A stretch of 64,000 nt of DNA, from NCBI GenBank assembly GCA_008633435.1, contig RKSL01000011.1, positions 905 through 64,904 on the forward strand. Direction: 5' to 3'. A program made the position numbers and the translations under genes. Below the pieces are notes generated by a model, which was given only the letters and a program-made list of their open reading frames with translations, did not search any database and was not told where the DNA came from. The DNA comes from Candidatus Desulfobulbus rimicarensis (GTDB lineage Bacteria > Desulfobacterota > Desulfobulbia > Desulfobulbales > Desulfobulbaceae). Below are positions 14,190 to 53,386 of this stretch, piece after piece. Position 1 is the stretch's first letter. The number at the start of each line of letters is the position of its first letter.

Positions 14190-15470
14190 ATGCCAAAGCA
14201 TGATACGCCTATGCTGGACGAACTGGAAAACGGCCCGTGGCCGAGTTTCGTCACTGACCTGAAGCGCCAGGCTGAGACCCACGATGAATGTTGGGATATT
14301 CTCGGTCAGATGGAGCTTTCCTACAAAGACAGAATCACTCACTGGAAACACGGCGGAATTGTAGGTGTTTTCGGATATGGTGGTGGTATTGTAGGACGTT
14401 ATTCCGACGTGCCTAAACAGTTTCCAGGTGTTGAGCATTTCCATACAGTTCGTATTAACCAACCTTCCGGTCTCTATTATTCCACTAAGAATCTTCGTGA
14501 CCTCATGGATCTCTGGGATAAGTACGGTTCCGGTATGACCAATATGCACGGTTCCACAGGTGATATGATTCTCCTTGGCACACGCACAGAAAACCTTGAG
14601 CCGTTATTTTGGGATCTGACCCATGACCTTAAACAGGATCTTGGCGGTTCCGGTTCAAACCTCAGAACACCTTCCTGCTGTCTTGGCGAGTCCCGCTGTG
14701 AGTGGTCATGTTTTGACACCCAAGATATCTGTTACGCTCTGACCATGCATTATCAGGATGAGATTCATCGTCCTGCATTTCCTTATAAGTTTAAATTCAA
14801 ATTTTCGGGTTGCGCCAATGACTGTGTTGCAGCTATCGCCCGTTCTGACTTTGCTGTAATTGGTACCTGGAAGGATGACATCCAGATTGATCAGGCCGCA
14901 GTTAAAGAGTATGTTGCCGGTAACTATCCTGCAAATGGTGGCGCCCACAGTGGTCGCGACTGGGGTGCGTTCAGTATTCAGAAAGAAGTTATCAATCTCT
15001 GTCCCACCAAATGTATGTGGATGGAAGGCGATGAGCTGAAAATCGATGACTCTGAGTGTACCCGCTGCATGCATTGTATTAATGTTATGCCTCGTGCACT
15101 TCGCCCTGGTAAAGAGAAAGGCGCGACCATCTGTATCGGAGCTAAAGCACCTATCCTTGATGGTGCGCAGTTTGCCACCATGGTTATTCCTTTTATCAAA
15201 GTTTCCAAAGAAAATGAATACGAGAACGTTATTGACGTTATTGAGCAGATTTGGGACTGGTGGATGGAAGTTGGCAAAAACCGTGAGCGCGTTGGTGAGA
15301 CTATGCAGCGTGTAGGTCTGCCTACCTTCCTCTCTGTTATGGAAGTCGAGCCTCTGCCACAACACGTTAAAGAGCCTCGTTCCAACCCGTATGTTTTCTG
15401 GAAGGAAGAGGAAGTTGAAGGTGGCTGGGAACGTGATGTGGTAGAGTTCCGTAAACGGCACGCTGCGTAA
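14190..15470 (+). CDS. dsrA: dissimilatory sulfite reductase alpha subunit
   Basis: 426-aa ORF with siroheme/[4Fe-4S] Cys motifs 'CCLGESRCEWSC' and 'SGCANDCVA', and the ferredoxin insert 'CTRCMHCINVMP'. A GGAGG Shine-Dalgarno precedes it, and dsrB follows. Confidence 0.9.
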   Translation: MPKHDTPMLDELENGPWPSFVTDLKRQAETHDECWDILGQMELSYKDRITHWKHGGIVGVFGYGGGIVGRYSDVPKQFPGVEHFHTVRINQPSGLYYSTKNLRDLMDLWDKYGSGMTNMHGSTGDMILLGTRTENLEPLFWDLTHDLKQDLGGSGSNLRTPSCCLGESRCEWSCFDTQDICYALTMHYQDEIHRPAFPYKFKFKFSGCANDCVAAIARSDFAVIGTWKDDIQIDQAAVKEYVAGNYPANGGAHSGRDWGAFSIQKEVINLCPTKCMWMEGDELKIDDSECTRCMHCINVMPRALRPGKEKGATICIGAKAPILDGAQFATMVIPFIKVSKENEYENVIDVIEQIWDWWMEVGKNRERVGETMQRVGLPTFLSVMEVEPLPQHVKEPRSNPYVFWKEEEVEGGWERDVVEFRKRHAA

Positions 15471-15528
15471 TTTTCGTTAACCGATTTTACTGAAATTGAA
15501 CTATTTGACTATATAAGGAGATTGTATA

Positions 15529-16668
15529 ATGGGTTACGATCCTAAAAATCCCATGGAAGGTCGGATTACCGATCTGGGACCGCATCCGTACACAGATATG
15601 TTACCGCCTGTCATTGCCGAGAATAAAGGTAAATGGCTTTATCATGAAATCCTTGAGCCTGGTGTGCTGTTACATGTTGCCGAAGGCGGAGGGGAATGCT
15701 ATACCGTTCGTGTAGGTTCTCCGCGGCTTATTTCTATCGAGCATGTTCGGGAAATGTGCGATATCGCTGATGCGCATTGTGAGGGCTATCTGCGATTTAC
15801 TACTCGTAATAATGCCGAATTCATGACCGACTCAAAAGAGAAGTGTGACGCTTTGATTGCTGATCTCAAGAGCCGTGGCAAAAAATTCCCCATCGGTGGT
15901 ACCGGTGCCTGCGTGACGAACATTGTTCATACTCAGGGTTGGGTTCATTGTCATACGCCAGCCACGGATGCTTCCGGCCCGGTTAAGGCTGTTATGGATG
16001 ATCTGTTTGAGTATTTTGGTTCCATGAAGTTGCCTGCACAGGTTCGTATTGCTCTTGCCTGTTGTCTGAACATGTGTGGTGCTGTTCATGCCTCTGATAT
16101 TGCTATTCTTGGTGTACATCGTAAGCCGCCAATGATTGACCATGAGCGTATTACAGGCGTTTGCGAGCTTCCTCTGGCCATCGCTGCCTGTCCGCTTGGT
16201 GCTGTTAAACCTGCCAAGGCAGAGGTGAATGGCGAGGAAGTGAAAACCGTTAAGGTTAACGCTGAGCGTTGTATGTTCTGTGGTAACTGTTATACCATGT
16301 GTCCAGCTATGCCTCTGGCTGATCCGGAGGGCGATGGTATTGCGATTCTGGTTGGCGGTAAGGTGTCTAACGCTAAATCCGAGCCTAAATTCTCTAAATT
16401 GATCATCCCCTTCCTGCCAAACACTCCTCCACGTTGGCCTGAAACTGTTGACGTTATCCATAAAATCGTGGAAGTGTACGCGAAAGACGCTCACAAGTAC
16501 GAGCGTATTGGTGAGTGGGCTGAACGTATTGGCTGGGAGAAGTTTTTCGAAAAATGTGACATTCCGTTCACCGAGAAATCAATTGATGACTATCGCCTTG
16601 CCTATGATACCTGGCGGACTACCACGCAGTTTAAGTACACAAACGCTACTGCCGCTTACACCAAATAA
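15529..16668 (+). CDS. dsrB: dissimilatory sulfite reductase beta subunit
   Basis: 379-aa ORF with '[12 protein letters not shown]', '[14 protein letters not shown]' and '[12 protein letters not shown]'. Confidence 0.9.
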
Positions 16669-16736
16669 GAAGCTGTACGCATTACCGGGTCCGATTTACG
16701 GATCCGGGTATTAAACTCAGCCAAAGAGGATATGTT

Positions 16737-16982
16737 ATGGCAATGAGTATTGAAGAAGTAGAAGCTGCAATAATTGCAAAAGCAACTAAATCGCCTAAGC
16801 CACAACTCTATATTAAAGATTTTTATAAGTGTGACCCTGATCGTAAACCACGTGAGATCAAAAAAATCGCAAACAAGCTGGTTACCAAGGGCGAGTTGAT
16901 GTTCTGGTCTTCAGGATCAACAACCATGTATGCCCGCCCTGATCGTATTAAAAATGAAGAGGGCTCAGAAGGTATCAATTAG
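16737..16982 (+). CDS. dsrD: DsrD, small winged-helix partner of DsrAB
   Basis: 81-aa ORF immediately after dsrB with the conserved segment 'KKIANKLVTKGELMFWSSGSTTMYA'. Confidence 0.85.
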   Translation: MAMSIEEVEAAIIAKATKSPKPQLYIKDFYKCDPDRKPREIKKIANKLVTKGELMFWSSGSTTMYARPDRIKNEEGSEGIN

Positions 16983-20102: not shown

Positions 20103-20300
20103 ATGTGTCAGATAAATGTAGTGGTTGAACGTGAAGGGGAACAGGAAGCTGTCATGGAAGCGGTGACAGGGCTTGAGATGACTGATAAAGGCATCGTGTT
20201 ATCTACTTTTTTTGAAGAGCCGATAACCATCCCCGACGTACGTATTAAAGAAATAAATTTTCTGGGTGGTTCTGTTATTCTTGTTCCTGCCAGTACATAA
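20103..20300 (+). CDS. cooT: CooT-family nickel-binding protein
   Basis: 65-aa product starting 'MC' (MCQINVVVEREGEQEAVMEAV...STFFEEP...INFLGGSVIL). Length, the Met-Cys start and the beta-rich pattern match CooT (PF10133). An AAGGAG Shine-Dalgarno lies 7 nt upstream. Confidence 0.75.
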   Translation: MCQINVVVEREGEQEAVMEAVTGLEMTDKGIVLSTFFEEPITIPDVRIKEINFLGGSVILVPAST

Positions 20301-20351: not shown

Positions 20352-20606
20352 ATGGATACTCTTGAGAAAATACGGGTCATGTTACCCCACTGGATAGAAC
20401 ATAATCAGGGGCATGGAAAAGAATTTTCCCAGTGGGAAAACAAGCTTGCACAAGATAATCCTGAGATTGCGCGACTTTTACACGACGCTGTGCACTCTCT
20501 CCAGGAGGTGCAAGGCGCACTCGAAGAGGCCCTGGAAAAGGCAGGAGGTGCCCTTGAACAAAAAAGTGGCACGCATTCTCATGGGGCTGGTCACCATCAT
20601 CATTGA
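20352..20606 (+). CDS. small helical protein with a His-rich C-terminal tail (putative metal binding)
   Basis: 84-aa product 'MDTLEKIRVMLPHWIEHNQGHGKEF...THSHGAGHHHH'. It lies 52 nt downstream of the CooT-like gene on the same strand. Confidence 0.55.
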   Translation: MDTLEKIRVMLPHWIEHNQGHGKEFSQWENKLAQDNPEIARLLHDAVHSLQEVQGALEEALEKAGGALEQKSGTHSHGAGHHHH

Positions 20607-22997
20607 TCAGTTATAGTAGATACTCCATTTACCGGTTGCCAGGTTGTACTGATAATTAACCTCAAGCCGGAATGAGCTGCCCCGGTTGCGTTCTACACAA
20701 CTTAAGTTAAAAAACTGTTTCCCTTTCTTTTGTTTGATAAATGTCACCTTTGGATGACTGAGTTTTGATGAACGTGATGAAGGGTATGCTTTATGGAAAA
20801 TAGTTTCAAAGTTGTTTTTCAGCCAGTCGATCCTTGCCTGCATAGAAAGAGCCGCTGTTTTCTCTCGTATTCTGGTTCTTATATTTTTTGCAATCGTTGA
20901 TATATCGTTGTCCTGGACGAACTTTGATGAGTTGATCAGGTTTCTGATTGTCTTGTAATGGTCAAGAGCTGTTCGTAAATCACCCTCTTGTTCTGCCTTT
21001 GTTGCCTCGCCCTGTTCACGGGCAATCATGATCATCTGCAGTGTTTTTTCAATTTTTGGCACATCCTGATCGTGCGATCCTGCAAAGATCTGCCTGTTTG
21101 AGTGAAGAAGCTTAAGGGATTGCTGGTATTCCCCGATTGCCTTGTCCCATTTCCGGGCTTCATACGAATGACGGGCAAGGGAGAGCAGCTGGTAGAGGCG
21201 GGAGTCGGCCAGTAACCTGTCAAGCTCTTGTCGTTCAGCCGGGGTGACTGTATTCGGGCTTTCATTGAGCAGACGTTTTGCATCTTGAAGCATTTCAATG
21301 GTTTTTTGCCATTGCGCCTCGGTAAAGGTATTCTTGGACTGATCCAGCTCATGCCTGAAGGTTGCAGCAGCAAGTTTTTTGCTGATTTCTCCGGTGCCTT
21401 CGGCATCTGAAAGCGTTTGGGCAATCTCAAGGGCACGTCTATAGGTTGCAGCGGCATGTTCCCATTGCTGGGCATCCTCGGCCTTACGGGCGCTGGCCAG
21501 AGTTTCCTCAAAGCGAAGGTTGTTAATTGTCTGAATAATTGCCTGTTCCTGTACTTCCAGTTTATTGATATGGGCAAAATCCTGCGCTTTTGAGTAGGCA
21601 GTGATTGCTTTGCGAATCTTCCCGGTTTTGAGAAGATCATCACCATTTTTGGTTAATTTATCCAGTTTATGCAGCAGCCTGACTGTCTCAATGGGAAGGT
21701 ATTGGTGATTGTAGAGAGCCTTGCCCAAGACACCTTGCTTGAATTCAGGATTATTCAGCAGTGCGGTGACGTTATCCTGTAATTCTTTTTTTCTGGTTTT
21801 GCGTATAATGACTTTTTTTAGCGGTAGAAGAGCCGATTGTGCTGCTTTTTGAGCATTTTTAAAATTTTTTGCAGCAGCGGATTGTTTGGCTTGGTGCCAT
21901 TTTTTTTCAGCCTGTTTAATGGCATTGCCATCCAGAAAATAGAGGATTCCAAAGCAGGTAACAGCAATCAGGGCGATAATTACGGCCAGAATGGGCTTTA
22001 TCGGCAGGCCGGCTGTCTTAATCTTGGCACTACTTGGTTTTAAATCTTTCTGGTTGACTTTTTTAGGTTTTCCGTCCTGCTGCTTGGCTGCGGAAGCCGC
22101 AGCTAAAGTGTCTTGTGAGGAATTGCCTTCGCCTGCAAACGATTCGGAAAGAACCTGAGCCTGTCCCAGCCGAAGACGCAAGTCGTCCAGACCGGGGGTG
22201 TCTGTTGCCATCGTGGCAATCTGTTCTACAATTTCAAGGGCTTCGTTGATTTTTCCTTGTTCTTCGAGCTTTTCAGCTTCAATAATCAGTCTGTTGCTTT
22301 CGCGCAGGGCAGAAGAAATAACATGCTCTATTTCTCCTCTATCCGTGATGTCAGCTTTTTCCGGTATTTCAGCCAGGAGTTCGCCGGCAGCAACCATCTC
22401 TTTTTGTTCAATTCGTAATCTGATGAGGTCAAGCTGTTCAGCTGTTTCGCTGGAATAGTCGAGGGTGTCATCTTCGATGTCATCAAGGCCGAGCAGGTCA
22501 AAGGTGTCTTCGACCTCGTCAAGCAGGCTGTCCGGTTCAATATCACCTACCTGTACGCTGTCTAAAGGAAGCTCATTGCGATGTTCGGCATACCAGTCAG
22601 CCGCCTCCTGATTAAAGGGGTCTGTGAGATGATAATTGCTGCCACAGATCATCTCGCCAATATGGAGAATGAGTTCAGGGAGCTTGGGAGTTTCCTGCCA
22701 GTGCGATGCAATACGTATTGCGTCCGGGTCAATATCCGGATGAAAAATCGAGGTGAGTGGTTTGACGGCCGGTGGAAAATGGGGATACCCGAACGGCAGG
22801 CTGACCCGGACTCGATGTTGAGCCCCCTGGCGAATATTCCCATCCACATCACGGACAAAACCGTTAAGAAGGTATTCAATCTCGTAATTGTCAGGAGGAT
22901 CCCCTTCAACCTGTATTATGTTGATGCTGGGGTAGAGTTCGAGGGTTTTTTGAACCTCTTGAAAATCACTGGAAAGTTTTTCAGGGCCTGAAGCCAT
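20607..22997 (-). CDS. membrane-anchored UBC-fold (E2/UEV-like, no catalytic Cys) protein with TPR-like repeats
   Basis: 796-aa ORF. Residues ~12-140 carry 'LPFGYPHFPPAVKPLTSIFHPDIDPDAIRIASHW...DPFNQEAADWY', which mirrors the E2 core (F-P-x-x-YP-x-x-PP-x-V-x-F-x-T-x-I-x-HPNI...IC...W...P-x-N-x-x-AA). This is followed by an acidic linker and one TM helix (aa ~334-355, 'PILAVIIALIAVTCFGILYFL'). After that come repeated 'W..A...Y..AL' TPR-like units and a beta-rich tail. Confidence 0.65.
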   Translation of the reverse strand: MASGPEKLSSDFQEVQKTLELYPSINIIQVEGDPPDNYEIEYLLNGFVRDVDGNIRQGAQHRVRVSLPFGYPHFPPAVKPLTSIFHPDIDPDAIRIASHWQETPKLPELILHIGEMICGSNYHLTDPFNQEAADWYAEHRNELPLDSVQVGDIEPDSLLDEVEDTFDLLGLDDIEDDTLDYSSETAEQLDLIRLRIEQKEMVAAGELLAEIPEKADITDRGEIEHVISSALRESNRLIIEAEKLEEQGKINEALEIVEQIATMATDTPGLDDLRLRLGQAQVLSESFAGEGNSSQDTLAAASAAKQQDGKPKKVNQKDLKPSSAKIKTAGLPIKPILAVIIALIAVTCFGILYFLDGNAIKQAEKKWHQAKQSAAAKNFKNAQKAAQSALLPLKKVIIRKTRKKELQDNVTALLNNPEFKQGVLGKALYNHQYLPIETVRLLHKLDKLTKNGDDLLKTGKIRKAITAYSKAQDFAHINKLEVQEQAIIQTINNLRFEETLASARKAEDAQQWEHAAATYRRALEIAQTLSDAEGTGEISKKLAAATFRHELDQSKNTFTEAQWQKTIEMLQDAKRLLNESPNTVTPAERQELDRLLADSRLYQLLSLARHSYEARKWDKAIGEYQQSLKLLHSNRQIFAGSHDQDVPKIEKTLQMIMIAREQGEATKAEQEGDLRTALDHYKTIRNLINSSKFVQDNDISTIAKNIRTRIREKTAALSMQARIDWLKNNFETIFHKAYPSSRSSKLSHPKVTFIKQKKGKQFFNLSCVERNRGSSFRLEVNYQYNLATGKWSIYYN

Positions 22998-23192
22998 AGT
23001 GTACCTTGAATAATGACAGGGTGCTGTTCAATTTGTTAATAGAAAATGACAATAATAAAGCAATCTTTTTTTACATTCTATAATATTTTATACTGTGAAA
23101 CAAGTGACTTTCGCAGAATACGAGACAGTTGTGCAAAAAAGTAGTCGGAATTTGGTCAGCATCTCGGCTACGGGGTTTTTTATAACAACACT

Positions 23193-23220
23193 TTGACATA
23201 GCAATGTTTCTGTGTACAAT
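23193..23220 (+). promoter_or_regulatory. near-consensus sigma-70 promoter facing the DUF4388 gene
   Basis: TTGACA-N16-TACAAT lies about 190 nt upstream of the ATG at 23415, in an AT-rich spacer. Confidence 0.35.
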
Positions 23221-23414
23221 GCAATACAAAGATGTAATTCTTAAGATTATCGAAAATTGTTTTTGATCGTTTTCTGCACCACCCCAAAAACACAATGGAT
23301 GTATCGTGCTTTTGTGGCGCATGTTTTGGTGTTGAGGCTATTGATCATGCTTGCAATGCACGTTATTGATAGTAGCTCTTAAGATGAGATTCAAATTTAG
23401 GTGTAAGAAGTCTT

Positions 23415-24035
23415 ATGGGTAATTTTGCAGTGACATTTGATATTACTGAAGAGAGGGCATGCCCTTTTTATTCAGTTGATAATTCTCTGGTCTTGACTGA
23501 GAATGCTGTTATTCTTCCGGTGGGTGCGCCTGCCTGTCTTATTCTGGTGCGGCAGGTTACCGAGCTGTTGTTTGAACTGTTACCCCATGCAGAATCAGAC
23601 TTTGCTGAAAAACGTAATACGGTTTTTTCCTGTGGAGGTTGTACCGGGTTGATAAAGTTTACAATTGGTGAGACTGTAGAGAATATTTCAGGATCCGGTG
23701 ATACGGGTGGAGAGGTTGTGATGAGCGGTCGGATAGATGCTATTTTACCTCCGGAACTTCTCCAGGTTTTTCATATGCATCAAAAAACCGGCAAGTTACT
23801 GATGGATATGGATGGTGGCTCAGCCAGGGTGACATTTCGGGAAGGAGGTATTATTGCTGCCCGTTATGGAGATCTGGACAATCAGGAGGCTGTTTTTGGT
23901 CTGATGGCTGAAAAAACAGGGTATTTCCGTTTTCTTCCCGGATTACCTTCTCCCCTTTTAAAGGCAAGGGAAATAGGTGATTTCATGATGATCCTCATGG
24001 AGGGGCTGAAGAGGCTGGATGAGGACGAAGAGTAA
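23415..24035 (+). CDS. DUF4388 (PATAN-like) domain protein with a Cys-containing N-terminal module
   Basis: The C-terminal half, 'PELLQVFHMHQKTGKLLMDMDGGSARVTFREGGIIAARYGDLDNQEAVFGLMAEKTGYFRF', fits the DUF4388 pattern. The N-terminal ~95 aa contains 'ACPFY', 'APAC' and 'SCGGCTG'. Confidence 0.6.
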   Translation: MGNFAVTFDITEERACPFYSVDNSLVLTENAVILPVGAPACLILVRQVTELLFELLPHAESDFAEKRNTVFSCGGCTGLIKFTIGETVENISGSGDTGGEVVMSGRIDAILPPELLQVFHMHQKTGKLLMDMDGGSARVTFREGGIIAARYGDLDNQEAVFGLMAEKTGYFRFLPGLPSPLLKAREIGDFMMILMEGLKRLDEDEE

Positions 24036-31948: not shown

Positions 31949-31988
31949 AAAAAAAAGAGGTGAGCGGTATGCTCACCTCTTTTTTTTA
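31949..31988. terminator. bidirectional rho-independent terminator
   Basis: A8-GAGGTGAGC-ggtat-GCTCACCTC-T9, a perfect 9-bp stem flanked by A and T runs. It sits between the convergent NIL-ferredoxin and bamD genes. Confidence 0.8.
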
Positions 31989-32837
31989 TGATTTTTTATC
32001 AGGACGTTGCGGAATTGCCGGGATCTCCGGGGAAGTATCCTCAGGACGGATATCCTTATCCGATGGATCAAAATAGATCCAGTCGGGCATCTGAATATTC
32101 GGCAACCATTTACTCAGTCCCCACCGTGGCGGATCTCCGGCTTCAAGGCGGGCAAGTAATGCCTCTGCTTTCGGGATAACAGAAGATTCTGGGTACATGG
32201 CCAAGATATATTTCAATCTGTGTTTGGCCTGTTCAAACTGTTTGGTTCGTACGTAAAAAACCGCGACAAAATATTCATGGTTGACCAGAAATTCTTTGGC
32301 AGCCTCGATTCTGGCTTTGGCCTCACGGCTGTAAGGTGACTTTGGGTAGGCTCGAAGGAGCCTGGAAAAGGACTGGATGGCGTCCTGAGCCCCTGAAACA
32401 TCGCGGTCAATGCGGTCACTTCGTGAAAAATCACACATGCCGATCTGAAACATGACATAAGCCATCGCCTCATTGGTGGGATGGCGTTCTTCAAATTCTT
32501 TGTACAGCGTTTTTGCTTCCTGAAATTCGTTTTTATAATAATGGCAATCTGCTGATTTCAGCTCGGCAAGCATGGCTTGGGGGCTGAATGGATATCGAAC
32601 CAGAATTTCCTCAAAAGCCCGCAACGCCTCAGAGTAGTTATCAAGATTAAATTCTTCCATGCCTGTTTTTGCAAGTGCCTCAGCCTGTTCAAACACCTCT
32701 TCTTCAGCATCTTGTGAAAAGGGCCAGAAGTTGAACGTGCTGCCACTGGTGCTGCATCCGGACAGCGAGACCAGGCTGAACCCTAGGAGCAAAACGAGTA
32801 TGATCCGGCGTAAAGAAGAGGAGTTTGCATGTGTCAT
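31986..32837 (-). CDS. bamD: outer-membrane assembly lipoprotein BamD/YfiO
   Basis: Signal peptide with lipobox 'VSLSGC', TPR-like repeats, and 'YPxSxY' segments ('YPFSPQA', 'YPKSPYS', 'YPESSVI'). The start is at MTHANSS, which has an AGGA Shine-Dalgarno. Confidence 0.75.
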   Translation of the reverse strand: MTHANSSSLRRIILVLLLGFSLVSLSGCSTSGSTFNFWPFSQDAEEEVFEQAEALAKTGMEEFNLDNYSEALRAFEEILVRYPFSPQAMLAELKSADCHYYKNEFQEAKTLYKEFEERHPTNEAMAYVMFQIGMCDFSRSDRIDRDVSGAQDAIQSFSRLLRAYPKSPYSREAKARIEAAKEFLVNHEYFVAVFYVRTKQFEQAKHRLKYILAMYPESSVIPKAEALLARLEAGDPPRWGLSKWLPNIQMPDWIYFDPSDKDIRPEDTSPEIPAIPQRPDKKS

Positions 32838-33032
32838 GGGGTAATCCTGAAAAAGAATCAAAATAAGATTTCGCAACTATCTGCCGGGCGCCAGTACTGG
32901 TCAGGCTGCCTTATCGTGGAGTATAGTGCCTGATTGCTGCATTATGCTCCGTTTTTTCAAAAGATGGCAAGACTGTATTTAACAAAGGTTTTCCTGTTCA
33001 GGAATGTTCATTTTACCTGATACCTGAACAAT

Positions 33033-52651: not shown

Positions 52652-53386
52652 ATGAAAAAAATATCATTGGCTGTTGCGGCAGTTGTGGCCTTGTCGACAA
52701 GTTCCGTACTGGCTGCCGGGCATCACTGGGGATATTCCGGGGAGGGTGCACCGGAGCACTGGGCAGAGTTAAATCCGGCCTTTGAAACCTGTGCAAAAGG
52801 GGTGAATCAATCACCTGTTAATCTGAGGGGTTTTGTTGAGGCGGAACTTGCTCCATTGGATTTTAACTATACAGGCCTTGCCACTGAGATAGAGAATAAC
52901 GGACATACCATCCAGGTACATTATGCCGCAGGTTCCACCCTCAAGGCTGCCGGGAAAACTTTTATTCTCAAGCAGTTTCACTTTCATTCACCCAGTGAAA
53001 ACCAGATTAATGGCGAGCATTTTCCCATGGAAGCACATTTTGTCCATGCCGATTATCAGGGAAATCTTGCCGTTGTTGCGGTGATGTTTAAAGTAGGGGA
53101 CGAAAATAAAGCACTCAAAAAACTGTGGCGGCAGATGCCCGGAGAAGAAGGGAAAATCGGGCTTGCATCCCAGGTCAAGGCAGAGGAGTTGATGCCTGAG
53201 GATAGAGAGTATTACCGATTCAACGGCTCTCTGACCACGCCACCCTGCAGCGAGGGGGTTGTCTGGATGGTTCTGAAACAGCCGGTGTCGCTCTCAGAAG
53301 CACAGTTAAAACAGTTTACCACAGTGATGGGGCAGCCAAATAATCGCCCTGTTCAGGCGGTGAATGCGCGTCCGATTCTTCAGTGA
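52652..53386 (+). CDS. secreted alpha-class carbonic anhydrase
   Basis: Signal peptide 'MKKISLAVAAVVALSTSSVLAA', then 'HWGYSGEGAPEHW', 'QSPVNL', Zn ligands in 'FHFHSPSE...HFVH', and 'LTTPPCSEGV'. Confidence 0.88.
   Translation: MKKISLAVAAVVALSTSSVLAAGHHWGYSGEGAPEHWAELNPAFETCAKGVNQSPVNLRGFVEAELAPLDFNYTGLATEIENNGHTIQVHYAAGSTLKAAGKTFILKQFHFHSPSENQINGEHFPMEAHFVHADYQGNLAVVAVMFKVGDENKALKKLWRQMPGEEGKIGLASQVKAEELMPEDREYYRFNGSLTTPPCSEGVVWMVLKQPVSLSEAQLKQFTTVMGQPNNRPVQAVNARPILQ

Follow-up and report, generated by a model that had tools for sequence, protein, structure and literature searches.

A predicted membrane-anchored E2-fold protein of the Desulfobulbales whose catalytic cysteine is replaced by arginine in Desulfobulbaceae

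The gene at 20607..22997 (-) of a 64,000-nucleotide stretch of the Candidatus Desulfobulbus rimicarensis genome (assembly GCA_008633435.1, contig RKSL01000011.1, positions 905 to 64,904; hereafter the window, whose coordinates are used unless a locus is named) encodes a 796-residue protein in which a ubiquitin-conjugating enzyme (E2) fold, with Arg at the position of the catalytic Cys, is joined through a stalk to a single predicted transmembrane helix and a long region of helical repeats. An earlier note, made from the letters of this DNA without database searches, had described it as a Cys-less, E2-like membrane protein without ubiquitin-system partners, divergently paired with a DUF4388 gene. 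We consider it probable, with moderate confidence, that this protein is a non-catalytic, membrane-anchored pseudo-E2 scaffold. The more specific step, the docking of the PATAN (DUF4388) regulator encoded next door, is suggested by sequence and gene order and is put forward only tentatively.

The N-terminal head is, by sequence, a classical UBC domain of the UQ_con type. The Pfam family UQ_con (PF00179) matched residues 51-142 of the whole protein with 32.2 bits (gathering cut-off 27) and residues 1-150 alone with 37.6 bits (E 2e-9), while no other Pfam family was returned for these 150 residues even at E<=10, UEV (PF05743), RWD (PF05773) and Prok-E2 included. A phmmer search of the PDB yielded E2 enzymes exclusively, the best of them Ubc13-like (E 2e-7) and Rad6 also at about 2e-7. 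We obtained a full-length AlphaFold2 model from 116 homologues (mean predicted local distance difference test score, pLDDT, 80), in which residues 1-145 are confidently placed and follow the UBC order of secondary structure (helix, four-stranded meander, helices), and Foldseek matched this domain to Rad6b (2ybf_A) with a target-normalised template-modelling (TM) score of 0.66 over 143 columns. The Pfam score over the cut-off, the PDB E value of 2e-7 and the fold match together rule out a chance similarity to E2s. Two of the checks proposed in the earlier note, the comparison with PF00179, PF05743 and PF05773 and the structure model searched with Foldseek, thus recovered the UBC fold that it had read at the N-terminus. 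Its further suggestion of a UEV/RWD-type variant holds only in part: the UBC fold without a catalytic Cys was found, but membership of the UEV, RWD or Prok-E2 families was rejected for want of a profile match, UQ_con being matched instead. The layout of the protein and its surroundings is as follows.

20607..22997 (-): whole gene of the membrane-anchored E2-fold protein; stop codon 20607-20609
22548..22997 (-): UBC (E2-fold) domain, predicted cytoplasmic, residues 1-150; UQ_con, PDB E2s, Foldseek, pLDDT 86-90
22698..22745 (-): active-site loop FHPDIDPDAIRIASHW in remodelled form; HPD for HPN, Arg95 for the catalytic Cys
22713-22715 (-): Arg95 codon CGT, in the catalytic-Cys column
22455..22547 (-): acidic disordered linker, residues 151-181; 14 D/E and no K/R, pLDDT <50
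22134..22454 (-): helical stalk, predicted cytoplasmic, residues ~181-288; AlphaFold2 helices
21999..22133 (-): Lys-rich disordered juxtamembrane segment, residues 289-333; pLDDT <50, 8 K/R against 4 D/E
21930..21998 (-): single transmembrane helix KPILAVIIALIAVTCFGILYFLD, residues 334-356; hydropathy in 116 homologues
20769..21929 (-): predicted periplasmic TPR-like helical-repeat region, residues 357-743 (~390 residues); AlphaFold2 hairpins, Foldseek
20610..20768 (-): C-terminal four-stranded beta module, residues 744-796, with the invariant Cys767; domain model pLDDT 89
22998..23414 (no strand): divergent intergenic region of 417 bp shared with the PatA_N gene; promoter-like sites
23415..24035 (+): divergent gene for a PATAN (DUF4388/PatA_N) domain protein; Pfam 63 bits

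The open reading frame begins with ATG, preceded at a distance of 8 nt by a weak AAGG, and the position of the N-terminal Met is identical in all full-length homologues.

The catalytic-Cys column was located by bridging, using Cys-bearing relatives aligned to Ubc13. The 'HPNIAP-HAICIG' of the Aquisphaera giovannonii E2 (P0399) aligns on the 'HPNIDKLGRICLD' of Ubc13 with its Cys on the catalytic Cys, and the family alignment of the window protein's 'HPDIDPDAIRIA' places Arg95 in that same column. In an alignment of 116 close homologues, on which all figures for invariance and conservation are based, H86, P87, D88, D90, P91, R95 and W100 are each present in 116/116 sequences, and the two changes that the earlier note had read in this loop, the missing catalytic Cys and the conversion of HPN to HPD, are therefore fixed among these homologues. 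The Asn of the HPN motif is needed for isopeptide formation by E2 enzymes; in the window protein it has become Asp88, the same HPD occurs in the Cys-bearing orthologs, and the spacing from HP(N/D) to the Cys column is one residue shorter than in eukaryotic E2s. The sole Cys of the window UBC domain, C118, is Ser in 21 of the 116 sequences. With Arg95 in the Cys column and no invariant Cys elsewhere in the domain, an E2-type thioester would be impossible, and the sequence thus predicts that the window protein is incapable of carrying a ubiquitin-like protein (Ubl) in this form. The names 'ubiquitin-conjugating enzyme E2' and 'ubiquitin-protein ligase' that databases apply are wrong for the Arg-type proteins, which cannot act as E2s. 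The UBC domain is nevertheless the most conserved region of the protein, with 28 invariant columns and a mean pairwise identity of 67%, compared to 45% for the repeats and 19% for the Lys-rich juxtamembrane segment, the least conserved region.

A protein search returned 288 homologues, some of which already carry these automatic E2 or ligase names; the best 120 were all about 790-800 residues long, that is, full length, and the organisms named among them were Desulfobulbaceae, Desulfobulbus or Thermodesulfobacteriota. When one genome of each GTDB species was scanned, relatives were confirmed at 184 places. Of the best 80, nearly all are named as Desulfobulbales (Desulfobulbus, Desulfogranum, Desulfofustis, Desulfocapsaceae and the cable bacteria Electrothrix and Electronema), and the others are a few with generic labels and one metagenome-assembled genome labelled Geobacter; a metagenome scan with P0252 gave no loci. 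The Desulfobulbales genes, those of the cable bacteria among them, represent a single ortholog that is syntenic across the order. The conserved gene order runs PGI, dsrA, dsrB, dsrD, birA, ADH, KpsF, (CooT, DUF8180) and the E2-like gene, and continues past it with the divergent PatA_N, (GGDEF), HAD, HD, CxxCxxCC and SecDF. The phyletic and neighbourhood analysis that the earlier note had called for thus revealed order-wide orthology and a recurrent PATAN gene at the locus. In the cable bacteria (L049, L051, L056-L059, L062, L063, L066, L067 and L071), the Arg-type gene adjoins DUF8180-KpsF, and at some of these loci it contains insertions, with matches of up to about 2.6 kb compared to about 2.4 kb elsewhere.

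We then compared the state of the Cys column at 86 Desulfobulbales loci, comprising the genome-scan set and contigs from the protein look-up. Arg was found at 79 of these and Cys at 6, while one has HPA...A. The six Cys loci belong to Desulfocapsaceae (Desulfofustis, Desulforhopalus) and share the loop 'FHPDFDPAAICIGDFW'; the Cys-bearing Desulforhopalus gene is an ortholog because its syntenic position is identical. A Cys-less E2 fold, as the earlier note had it, is therefore correct for Desulfobulbaceae but not for the sister family Desulfocapsaceae, whose orthologs keep the Cys.

At the 50% clustering level, an exhaustive search with residues 1-160 extended the family to 969 representatives (498 with E<=1e-10), and nearly all of the long ones share the architecture of UBC domain, transmembrane helix, helical repeats and beta cap. 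Across this wider family the Cys column is occupied by R, C, K, S, H, A, Q, L, G, N, Y, F or P. A neighbour-joining tree, which is rough and was rooted on short Planctomycete forms, has Cys at its root and about 11 losses of it, and the Arg codons are mostly CGC or CGT (82/111), one transition away from TGC/TGT. A second Cys, at the position of Val78 in the window protein ('PPSC'/'PPQC'; codon 22764-22766) and of Val in eukaryotic E2s, co-varies with the catalytic one: both are present in 308 sequences of the wider family and neither in 158, with 18 mixed. From these sequences, the two residues could be a functional Cys pair of the ancestral bacterial E2, or their co-variation could be a mere phylogenetic correlation. 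We also observed compact relatives of about 530 residues (metagenome loci L090-L097), in which the transmembrane helix lies at about residue 170 without a cytoplasmic stalk and the loop reads 'FHPE.D..V.PIANYW', with Glu for Asn/Asp and Pro at the Cys column. Their flanks are unrelated, with ClpB-like and EamA genes, for example, and no PatA_N neighbour; the small divergent open reading frames upstream of compact forms at L089 and L093 are unconserved and not PATAN-like, and were set aside as probably not genes.

The closest relatives beyond the Desulfobulbales are E2s of Planctomycetes. Over 145 residues, the window UBC domain and the Aquisphaera giovannonii E2 share 37% identity (E 4e-31), and representatives of this type were found at E 1e-26 to 1e-29. 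This short HPN...Cys class, named 'ubiquitin-conjugating enzyme' and consisting of about 240 residues with a zinc ribbon, accounted for 3842 matches. In Aquisphaera (L087 1-11200, CP042997.1), the operon encodes a YukD-type Ubl (+DUF4190), ThiF, JAB, FHA, zinc-ribbon and Prok-RING_1 proteins ahead of the E2, the gene directly before it being a Prok-RING_1+DUF4190+trypsin fusion, and it ends with the UQ_con E2, after which comes DUF2752. A trypsin-like module is fused to an E2 in the metagenomic protein P0265. A review (PMC4197634) credits operons of the Ubl-E1-JAB-RING-E2 kind in Planctomycetes, Actinobacteria and Acidobacteria to Burroughs, Iyer and Aravind 2011. Since the closest outside relatives sit in complete operons, the E2-like protein appears as a stripped-down bacterial offshoot and not as a eukaryotic import; as judged from these sequence relationships, its ancestors were bacterial E2s working in Ubl-E1-JAB-RING-E2 operons, and the partners have been shed from the neighbourhood.

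The absence of such partners, noted earlier for the window, was confirmed and extended to related loci. No E1, Ubl, JAB or RING gene is present in the window, and Pfam scans of its large open reading frames identified housekeeping genes only and no ubiquitin-system partner. Searching by tblastn with the Aquisphaera Ubl, E1, JAB, FHA, zinc-ribbon, RING and DUF2752 sequences returned nothing in the window or in 166 loci (86 Desulfobulbales loci of 1.52 Mb and 80 metagenome loci of 0.73 Mb, about 2.2 Mb in all), a negative that covers the window and the related loci and in which small Ubl genes are poorly detected by tblastn. The sole exception was a trypsin-like match in L071, which is a generic peptidase. 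PADLOC gave no relevant match for the window protein, P0290 or P0399, and a defence-system E2 was dismissed on this ground.

Beyond the UBC domain, the modules were found in the order and at the places given in the earlier note: an acidic linker, a helical region followed by a Lys-rich stretch, one transmembrane helix, TPR-like repeats and a beta-rich C-terminal module. Within the linker, D164, F166, L169, G170 and L171 form a motif in which each residue is at least 90% conserved, and the stalk is modelled as helices at residues 181-197, 201-210, 220-246, 250-263 and 270-288, with a weak match to TPR_19 (E 0.0011). The transmembrane helix is the only strongly hydrophobic segment in 116/116 homologues (Kyte-Doolittle 2.5, next best 1.0), and across these sequences the net charge is about +4 on its N-terminal flank and about +1 on its C-terminal flank. 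The positive-inside rule and the lack of a signal peptide would place the UBC head in the cytoplasm and the C-terminal 440 residues in the periplasm. The predicted topology is thus N-in, with UBC domain, linker and stalk inside and the TPR-like solenoid and its cap in the periplasm.

The repeats are recovered at the level of fold. Residues 357-743 were modelled entirely as helical hairpins, and the top Foldseek matches to this region were LGN, designed TPR proteins (CTPRs), OGT and BamD, all with probability 1.0 and low global TM scores, while the Pfam TPR matches all fell under their cut-offs. The match to BamD probably reflects generic TPR similarity only. A gene for the outer-membrane lipoprotein BamD/YfiO, a genuine TPR protein, is itself located at 31986-32876 (-), about 9 kb from the E2-like gene. 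In the C-terminal module, four beta strands (residues 745-793) pack on the preceding helices, and Cys767 is present in 116/116 sequences; this domain was also modelled separately. It had no significant Foldseek or Pfam match, the nearest being a weak likeness to the NTF2/SnoaL-like fold (best Foldseek E 0.04, TM score at most 0.42).

The divergent pairing with a DUF4388 gene that the earlier note had pointed out proved to be widespread. Among loci with at least 1.5 kb of upstream DNA, to which these counts are confined, a divergent PatA_N gene lies immediately upstream in 107/131: it was found in 37/37 HPD...C loci, in 70/87 HPD...R loci, and in 0/7 of the compact forms and other states. At L099 and L122, where the other genes of the block are gone, a divergent gene for a cyclic nucleotide monophosphate (cNMP)-binding and PatA_N protein is still immediately upstream. 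The N-terminal, sensor half of the PATAN partner varies, being cNMP-binding in Desulforhopalus (L086 8763-9749), at L099 2645-3724 and at L122 6495-7586, while in the PatA_N protein of the window the N-terminal ~100 residues (23415-23720) include Cys (CPFY...CGGCTG) and weakly match a zinc ribbon. GGDEF genes stand beside the E2-like/PATAN pair in L004 and L122. The window PatA_N protein had no match in the PDB. Promoter-like sites in the divergent region, at 23039-23010 (-) and 23193-23220 (+), face one gene each, and no Rfam element such as a riboswitch was found in these 417 bp or the flanks. The PATAN domain of Synechocystis is an output domain at the inner membrane that binds PilB1 and PilC, and it stays at the membrane without them, for which 'additional proteins' have been invoked as an anchor (bioRxiv 10.1101/2021.06.11.447907).

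These data suggest a model in which the protein would be a single-pass scaffold of the inner membrane, whose cytoplasmic E2-fold head is presumably no longer a conjugating enzyme. Its remodelled groove (His86, Asp88, Asp90 and Arg95) would then be a putative binding site, as in the UEV and RWD pseudo-E2s, and the likeliest cytoplasmic client would be the PATAN-domain regulator encoded divergently next door. The scaffold might tether or gate this regulator at the membrane and may couple it to a ligand of the periplasmic repeats.

Several observations weigh against this model. The Desulfocapsaceae orthologs keep both Cys residues, and catalysis with unlinked partners is possible there; the extreme conservation of polar active-site residues would also suit a ligand-binding or catalytic role; and the topology is derived from charge bias only, in a protein whose periplasmic part is Lys-rich too. 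As for the PATAN regulator, its link to the E2-like protein consists of gene adjacency, and most of that adjacency falls within an order-wide syntenic block (dsrABD ... SecDF) that may have been carried passively, just two loci (L099 and L122) parting the pair from the block. An adjacent PATAN gene is lacking in 17/87 Arg-type loci, mostly of cable bacteria, and in all of the compact ~530-residue forms. The cable bacteria have lost the PatA_N/HAD/HD/SecDF flank, and at L071 the upstream place is taken by genes for a protein of sulfur transport and for a trypsin-like peptidase.

Of the alternatives, the one that takes the PATAN adjacency as passive is the strongest, although we still regard it as unlikely. 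On this view, the TPR-like part is key to an assembly factor of the envelope or periplasm, and the E2 fold serves only as a cytoplasmic plug or oligomerisation domain. In its favour are the synteny of the whole region across the order, the retention of the gene without PATAN in the cable bacteria, and the presence of periplasmic TPR proteins such as BamD among the structural matches. However, the UBC domain is conserved above the TPR region (67% compared to 45% identity), the pair persists without the remaining synteny in L099 and L122, and the divergent arrangement occurs in every one of the Cys-type loci (37/37). Slightly less likely still is the possibility that the remodelled pocket (His86, Asp88, Asp90 and Arg95) has gained a new small-molecule-binding or catalytic activity that has nothing to do with thioester transfer, so that the protein would be a sensor or an enzyme rather than a passive scaffold. 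The invariance of seven loop residues in 116 sequences, in the most constrained domain of the protein, is consistent with this proposal, as is the second-messenger flavour of the neighbourhood, with its cNMP-binding PATAN partners and the GGDEF genes of L004 and L122. Against it, position 95 holds such diverse residues in the different lineages (R, C, K, S, H, A, Q ...) that one conserved chemistry is difficult to envisage, and no ligand-binding family was matched in the Pfam searches; we know of no precedent for an activity of this kind in a UBC fold.

A working ubiquitin-like conjugation system, in which an E1 and a Ubl encoded elsewhere would charge the protein and targets would be modified at the membrane, seems very improbable. 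The domain does descend from E2s of complete bacterial operons, its active-site loop is extremely conserved, the Desulfocapsaceae orthologs retain the catalytic Cys together with the second, co-varying Cys, and the search for partners was confined to the window and related loci. Set against this are the Arg at the Cys position of the window protein and its 116 homologues, with no other invariant Cys in the domain, the Asp in place of the HPN Asn even in the Cys-bearing orthologs, the roughly 11 losses of Cys with replacements that are chemically unrelated, and the failure to find E1, Ubl, JAB or RING in about 2.2 Mb of loci. The least credible of the alternatives is that a eukaryotic E2 or UEV gene was recently acquired by horizontal transfer. 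UQ_con, the sole Pfam match, is indeed a classical and largely eukaryotic family, and Ubc13 and Rad6, which matched best in the PDB, are eukaryotic. However, the protein stands much closer to its relatives in bacteria (37-40% identity, E 1e-29 to 1e-31) than to eukaryotic E2s (E ~1e-7), vertical inheritance as a syntenic ortholog is seen order-wide, the composition of the gene is unremarkable for the window and no UEV or RWD profile matched. We rejected this origin on the strength of the closer bacterial relatives and the order-wide synteny.

The pseudo-E2 scaffold that we favour is of interest because bacterial E2-fold proteins are known almost solely within conjugation operons, either in defence systems or in Ubl-E1-JAB sets. 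Here the E2 fold is under strong selection across an order after losing its partners and Cys, an independent parallel to the eukaryotic UEV and RWD domains in a membrane protein, and the Cys/Arg split between sister families, with the roughly 11 Cys losses, offers a natural comparative test of an E2 fold without catalysis. The recurrent pairing also provides a testable candidate for the membrane recruitment of PATAN that the PATAN literature left open. A bolder version, possible but doubtful in our view, is that a true bacterial E2 was captured, fused to an anchor and a periplasmic TPR module, and is now a ubiquitin-independent membrane receptor for a cyclic-nucleotide-responsive PATAN regulator. 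If so, the protein would be the bacterial counterpart of UEV/RWD adaptors and the missing membrane anchor of PATAN signalling to type IV pili or cell polarity, and the Desulfocapsaceae orthologs, with their retained Cys, would stand at an intermediate stage, possibly still chargeable.

The surrounding DNA is ordinary chromosome of an uncultured Desulfobulbaceae-type sulfate reducer, even in composition throughout, with genes for a GatA-type amidase, DnaG, RpoD, DprA, Rpe, PGI, dsrA/dsrB/dsrD, a BirA-like ligase, KpsF, SecDF, BamD, TrxB, ATP synthase subunit a and a MiaB-like enzyme, among others. The dsrA, dsrB and dsrD genes (14190-16982 (+)) lie 3.6 kb from the E2-like gene in the same order-wide block, with no evidence of a functional link. 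On the other side of the E2-like gene from the PATAN gene, the gene for a homologue of the CooT nickel chaperone (20103-20300 (+); 51 bits) precedes that for a small protein with a His tail (20352-20606 (+); ...HGAGHHHH; precomputed label DUF8180). Both genes are convergent with the E2-like gene, the stop codons abutting (20606|20607) with zero intergenic bases, and the pair is found at the same position in many, not all, Desulfobulbales loci. Elsewhere in the window, an alpha-class ('eukaryotic-type') carbonic anhydrase is encoded at 52652-53386 (+) (Pfam Carb_anhydrase, E 2e-45).

The match to the UQ_con domain was itself already known; the architecture, the change of Cys to Arg and the phyletic pattern are new. 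NCBIfam holds no model matching the 796-residue protein, no curated family of Pfam or NCBIfam covers the UBC-transmembrane-TPR-like architecture, and we found no description of a membrane-anchored, partner-less UQ_con lineage in Desulfobulbales in the literature, Iyer et al. 2006, Grau-Bove et al. 2015, a kinetochore-RWD study and a 2024 review included, although an earlier mention is still possible; the earlier note's impression of an undescribed architecture agrees with these searches. The closest known system is the Planctomycete operon E2, as represented by that of Aquisphaera, with which the window UBC domain shares PxGYP...PP, FHP, W100, GEMI and EAA.W. The Planctomycete protein is soluble, with about 240 residues, a C-terminal zinc ribbon, HPN, the catalytic Cys and operon partners, whereas the window protein has 796 residues, HPD and Arg, a transmembrane helix and TPR-like repeats, and neither a zinc ribbon nor partner neighbours. 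The eukaryotic E2s (Ubc13, Rad6/UBE2A-B and UbcH5) belong to the same Pfam family and fold, with the YP..PP, HP. and W motifs in register; the window protein differs from them in its membrane anchor, its 650-residue non-E2 extension, the lack of a catalytic Cys, the Asp in place of Asn and the absence of E1, E3 and ubiquitin from its surroundings.

The UEV proteins (Mms2, Uev1 and Tsg101) and the RWD domains are UBC folds without a catalytic Cys that are used for binding and not for catalysis. The likeness is that of a Cys-less UBC fold and would be a functional analogy, the binding role of the window protein being a proposed one; the Cys was lost independently in the window lineage, inside a bacterial E2 lineage, and no UEV or RWD profile matched. 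Inactive, Cys-less E2-like domains have been described in bacterial polyUbl/JAB-E1 operons and read as binding modules (Iyer, Burroughs and Aravind 2006, PMC1779556). Those domains are remote from E2 (profile e ~0.01) and always located in Ubl/E1/JAB operons, whereas the window protein has a strong UQ_con match and no such operon. The defence E2s, CBASS Cap2 and BilB of Bil, are likewise bacterial proteins of the UBC superfamily, but the window protein has no E1 fusion or defence-island context and lies in housekeeping chromosomal surroundings. The tail-anchored E2s of the endoplasmic reticulum (Ubc6/UBE2J) are catalytically active; their anchor is a short C-terminal tail, and they have no domain past the membrane. 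They resemble the window protein, as its topology is predicted, in an E2 fold that faces the cytoplasm and is held by a single transmembrane helix, whereas in the window protein the Cys is gone and about 440 residues follow that helix.

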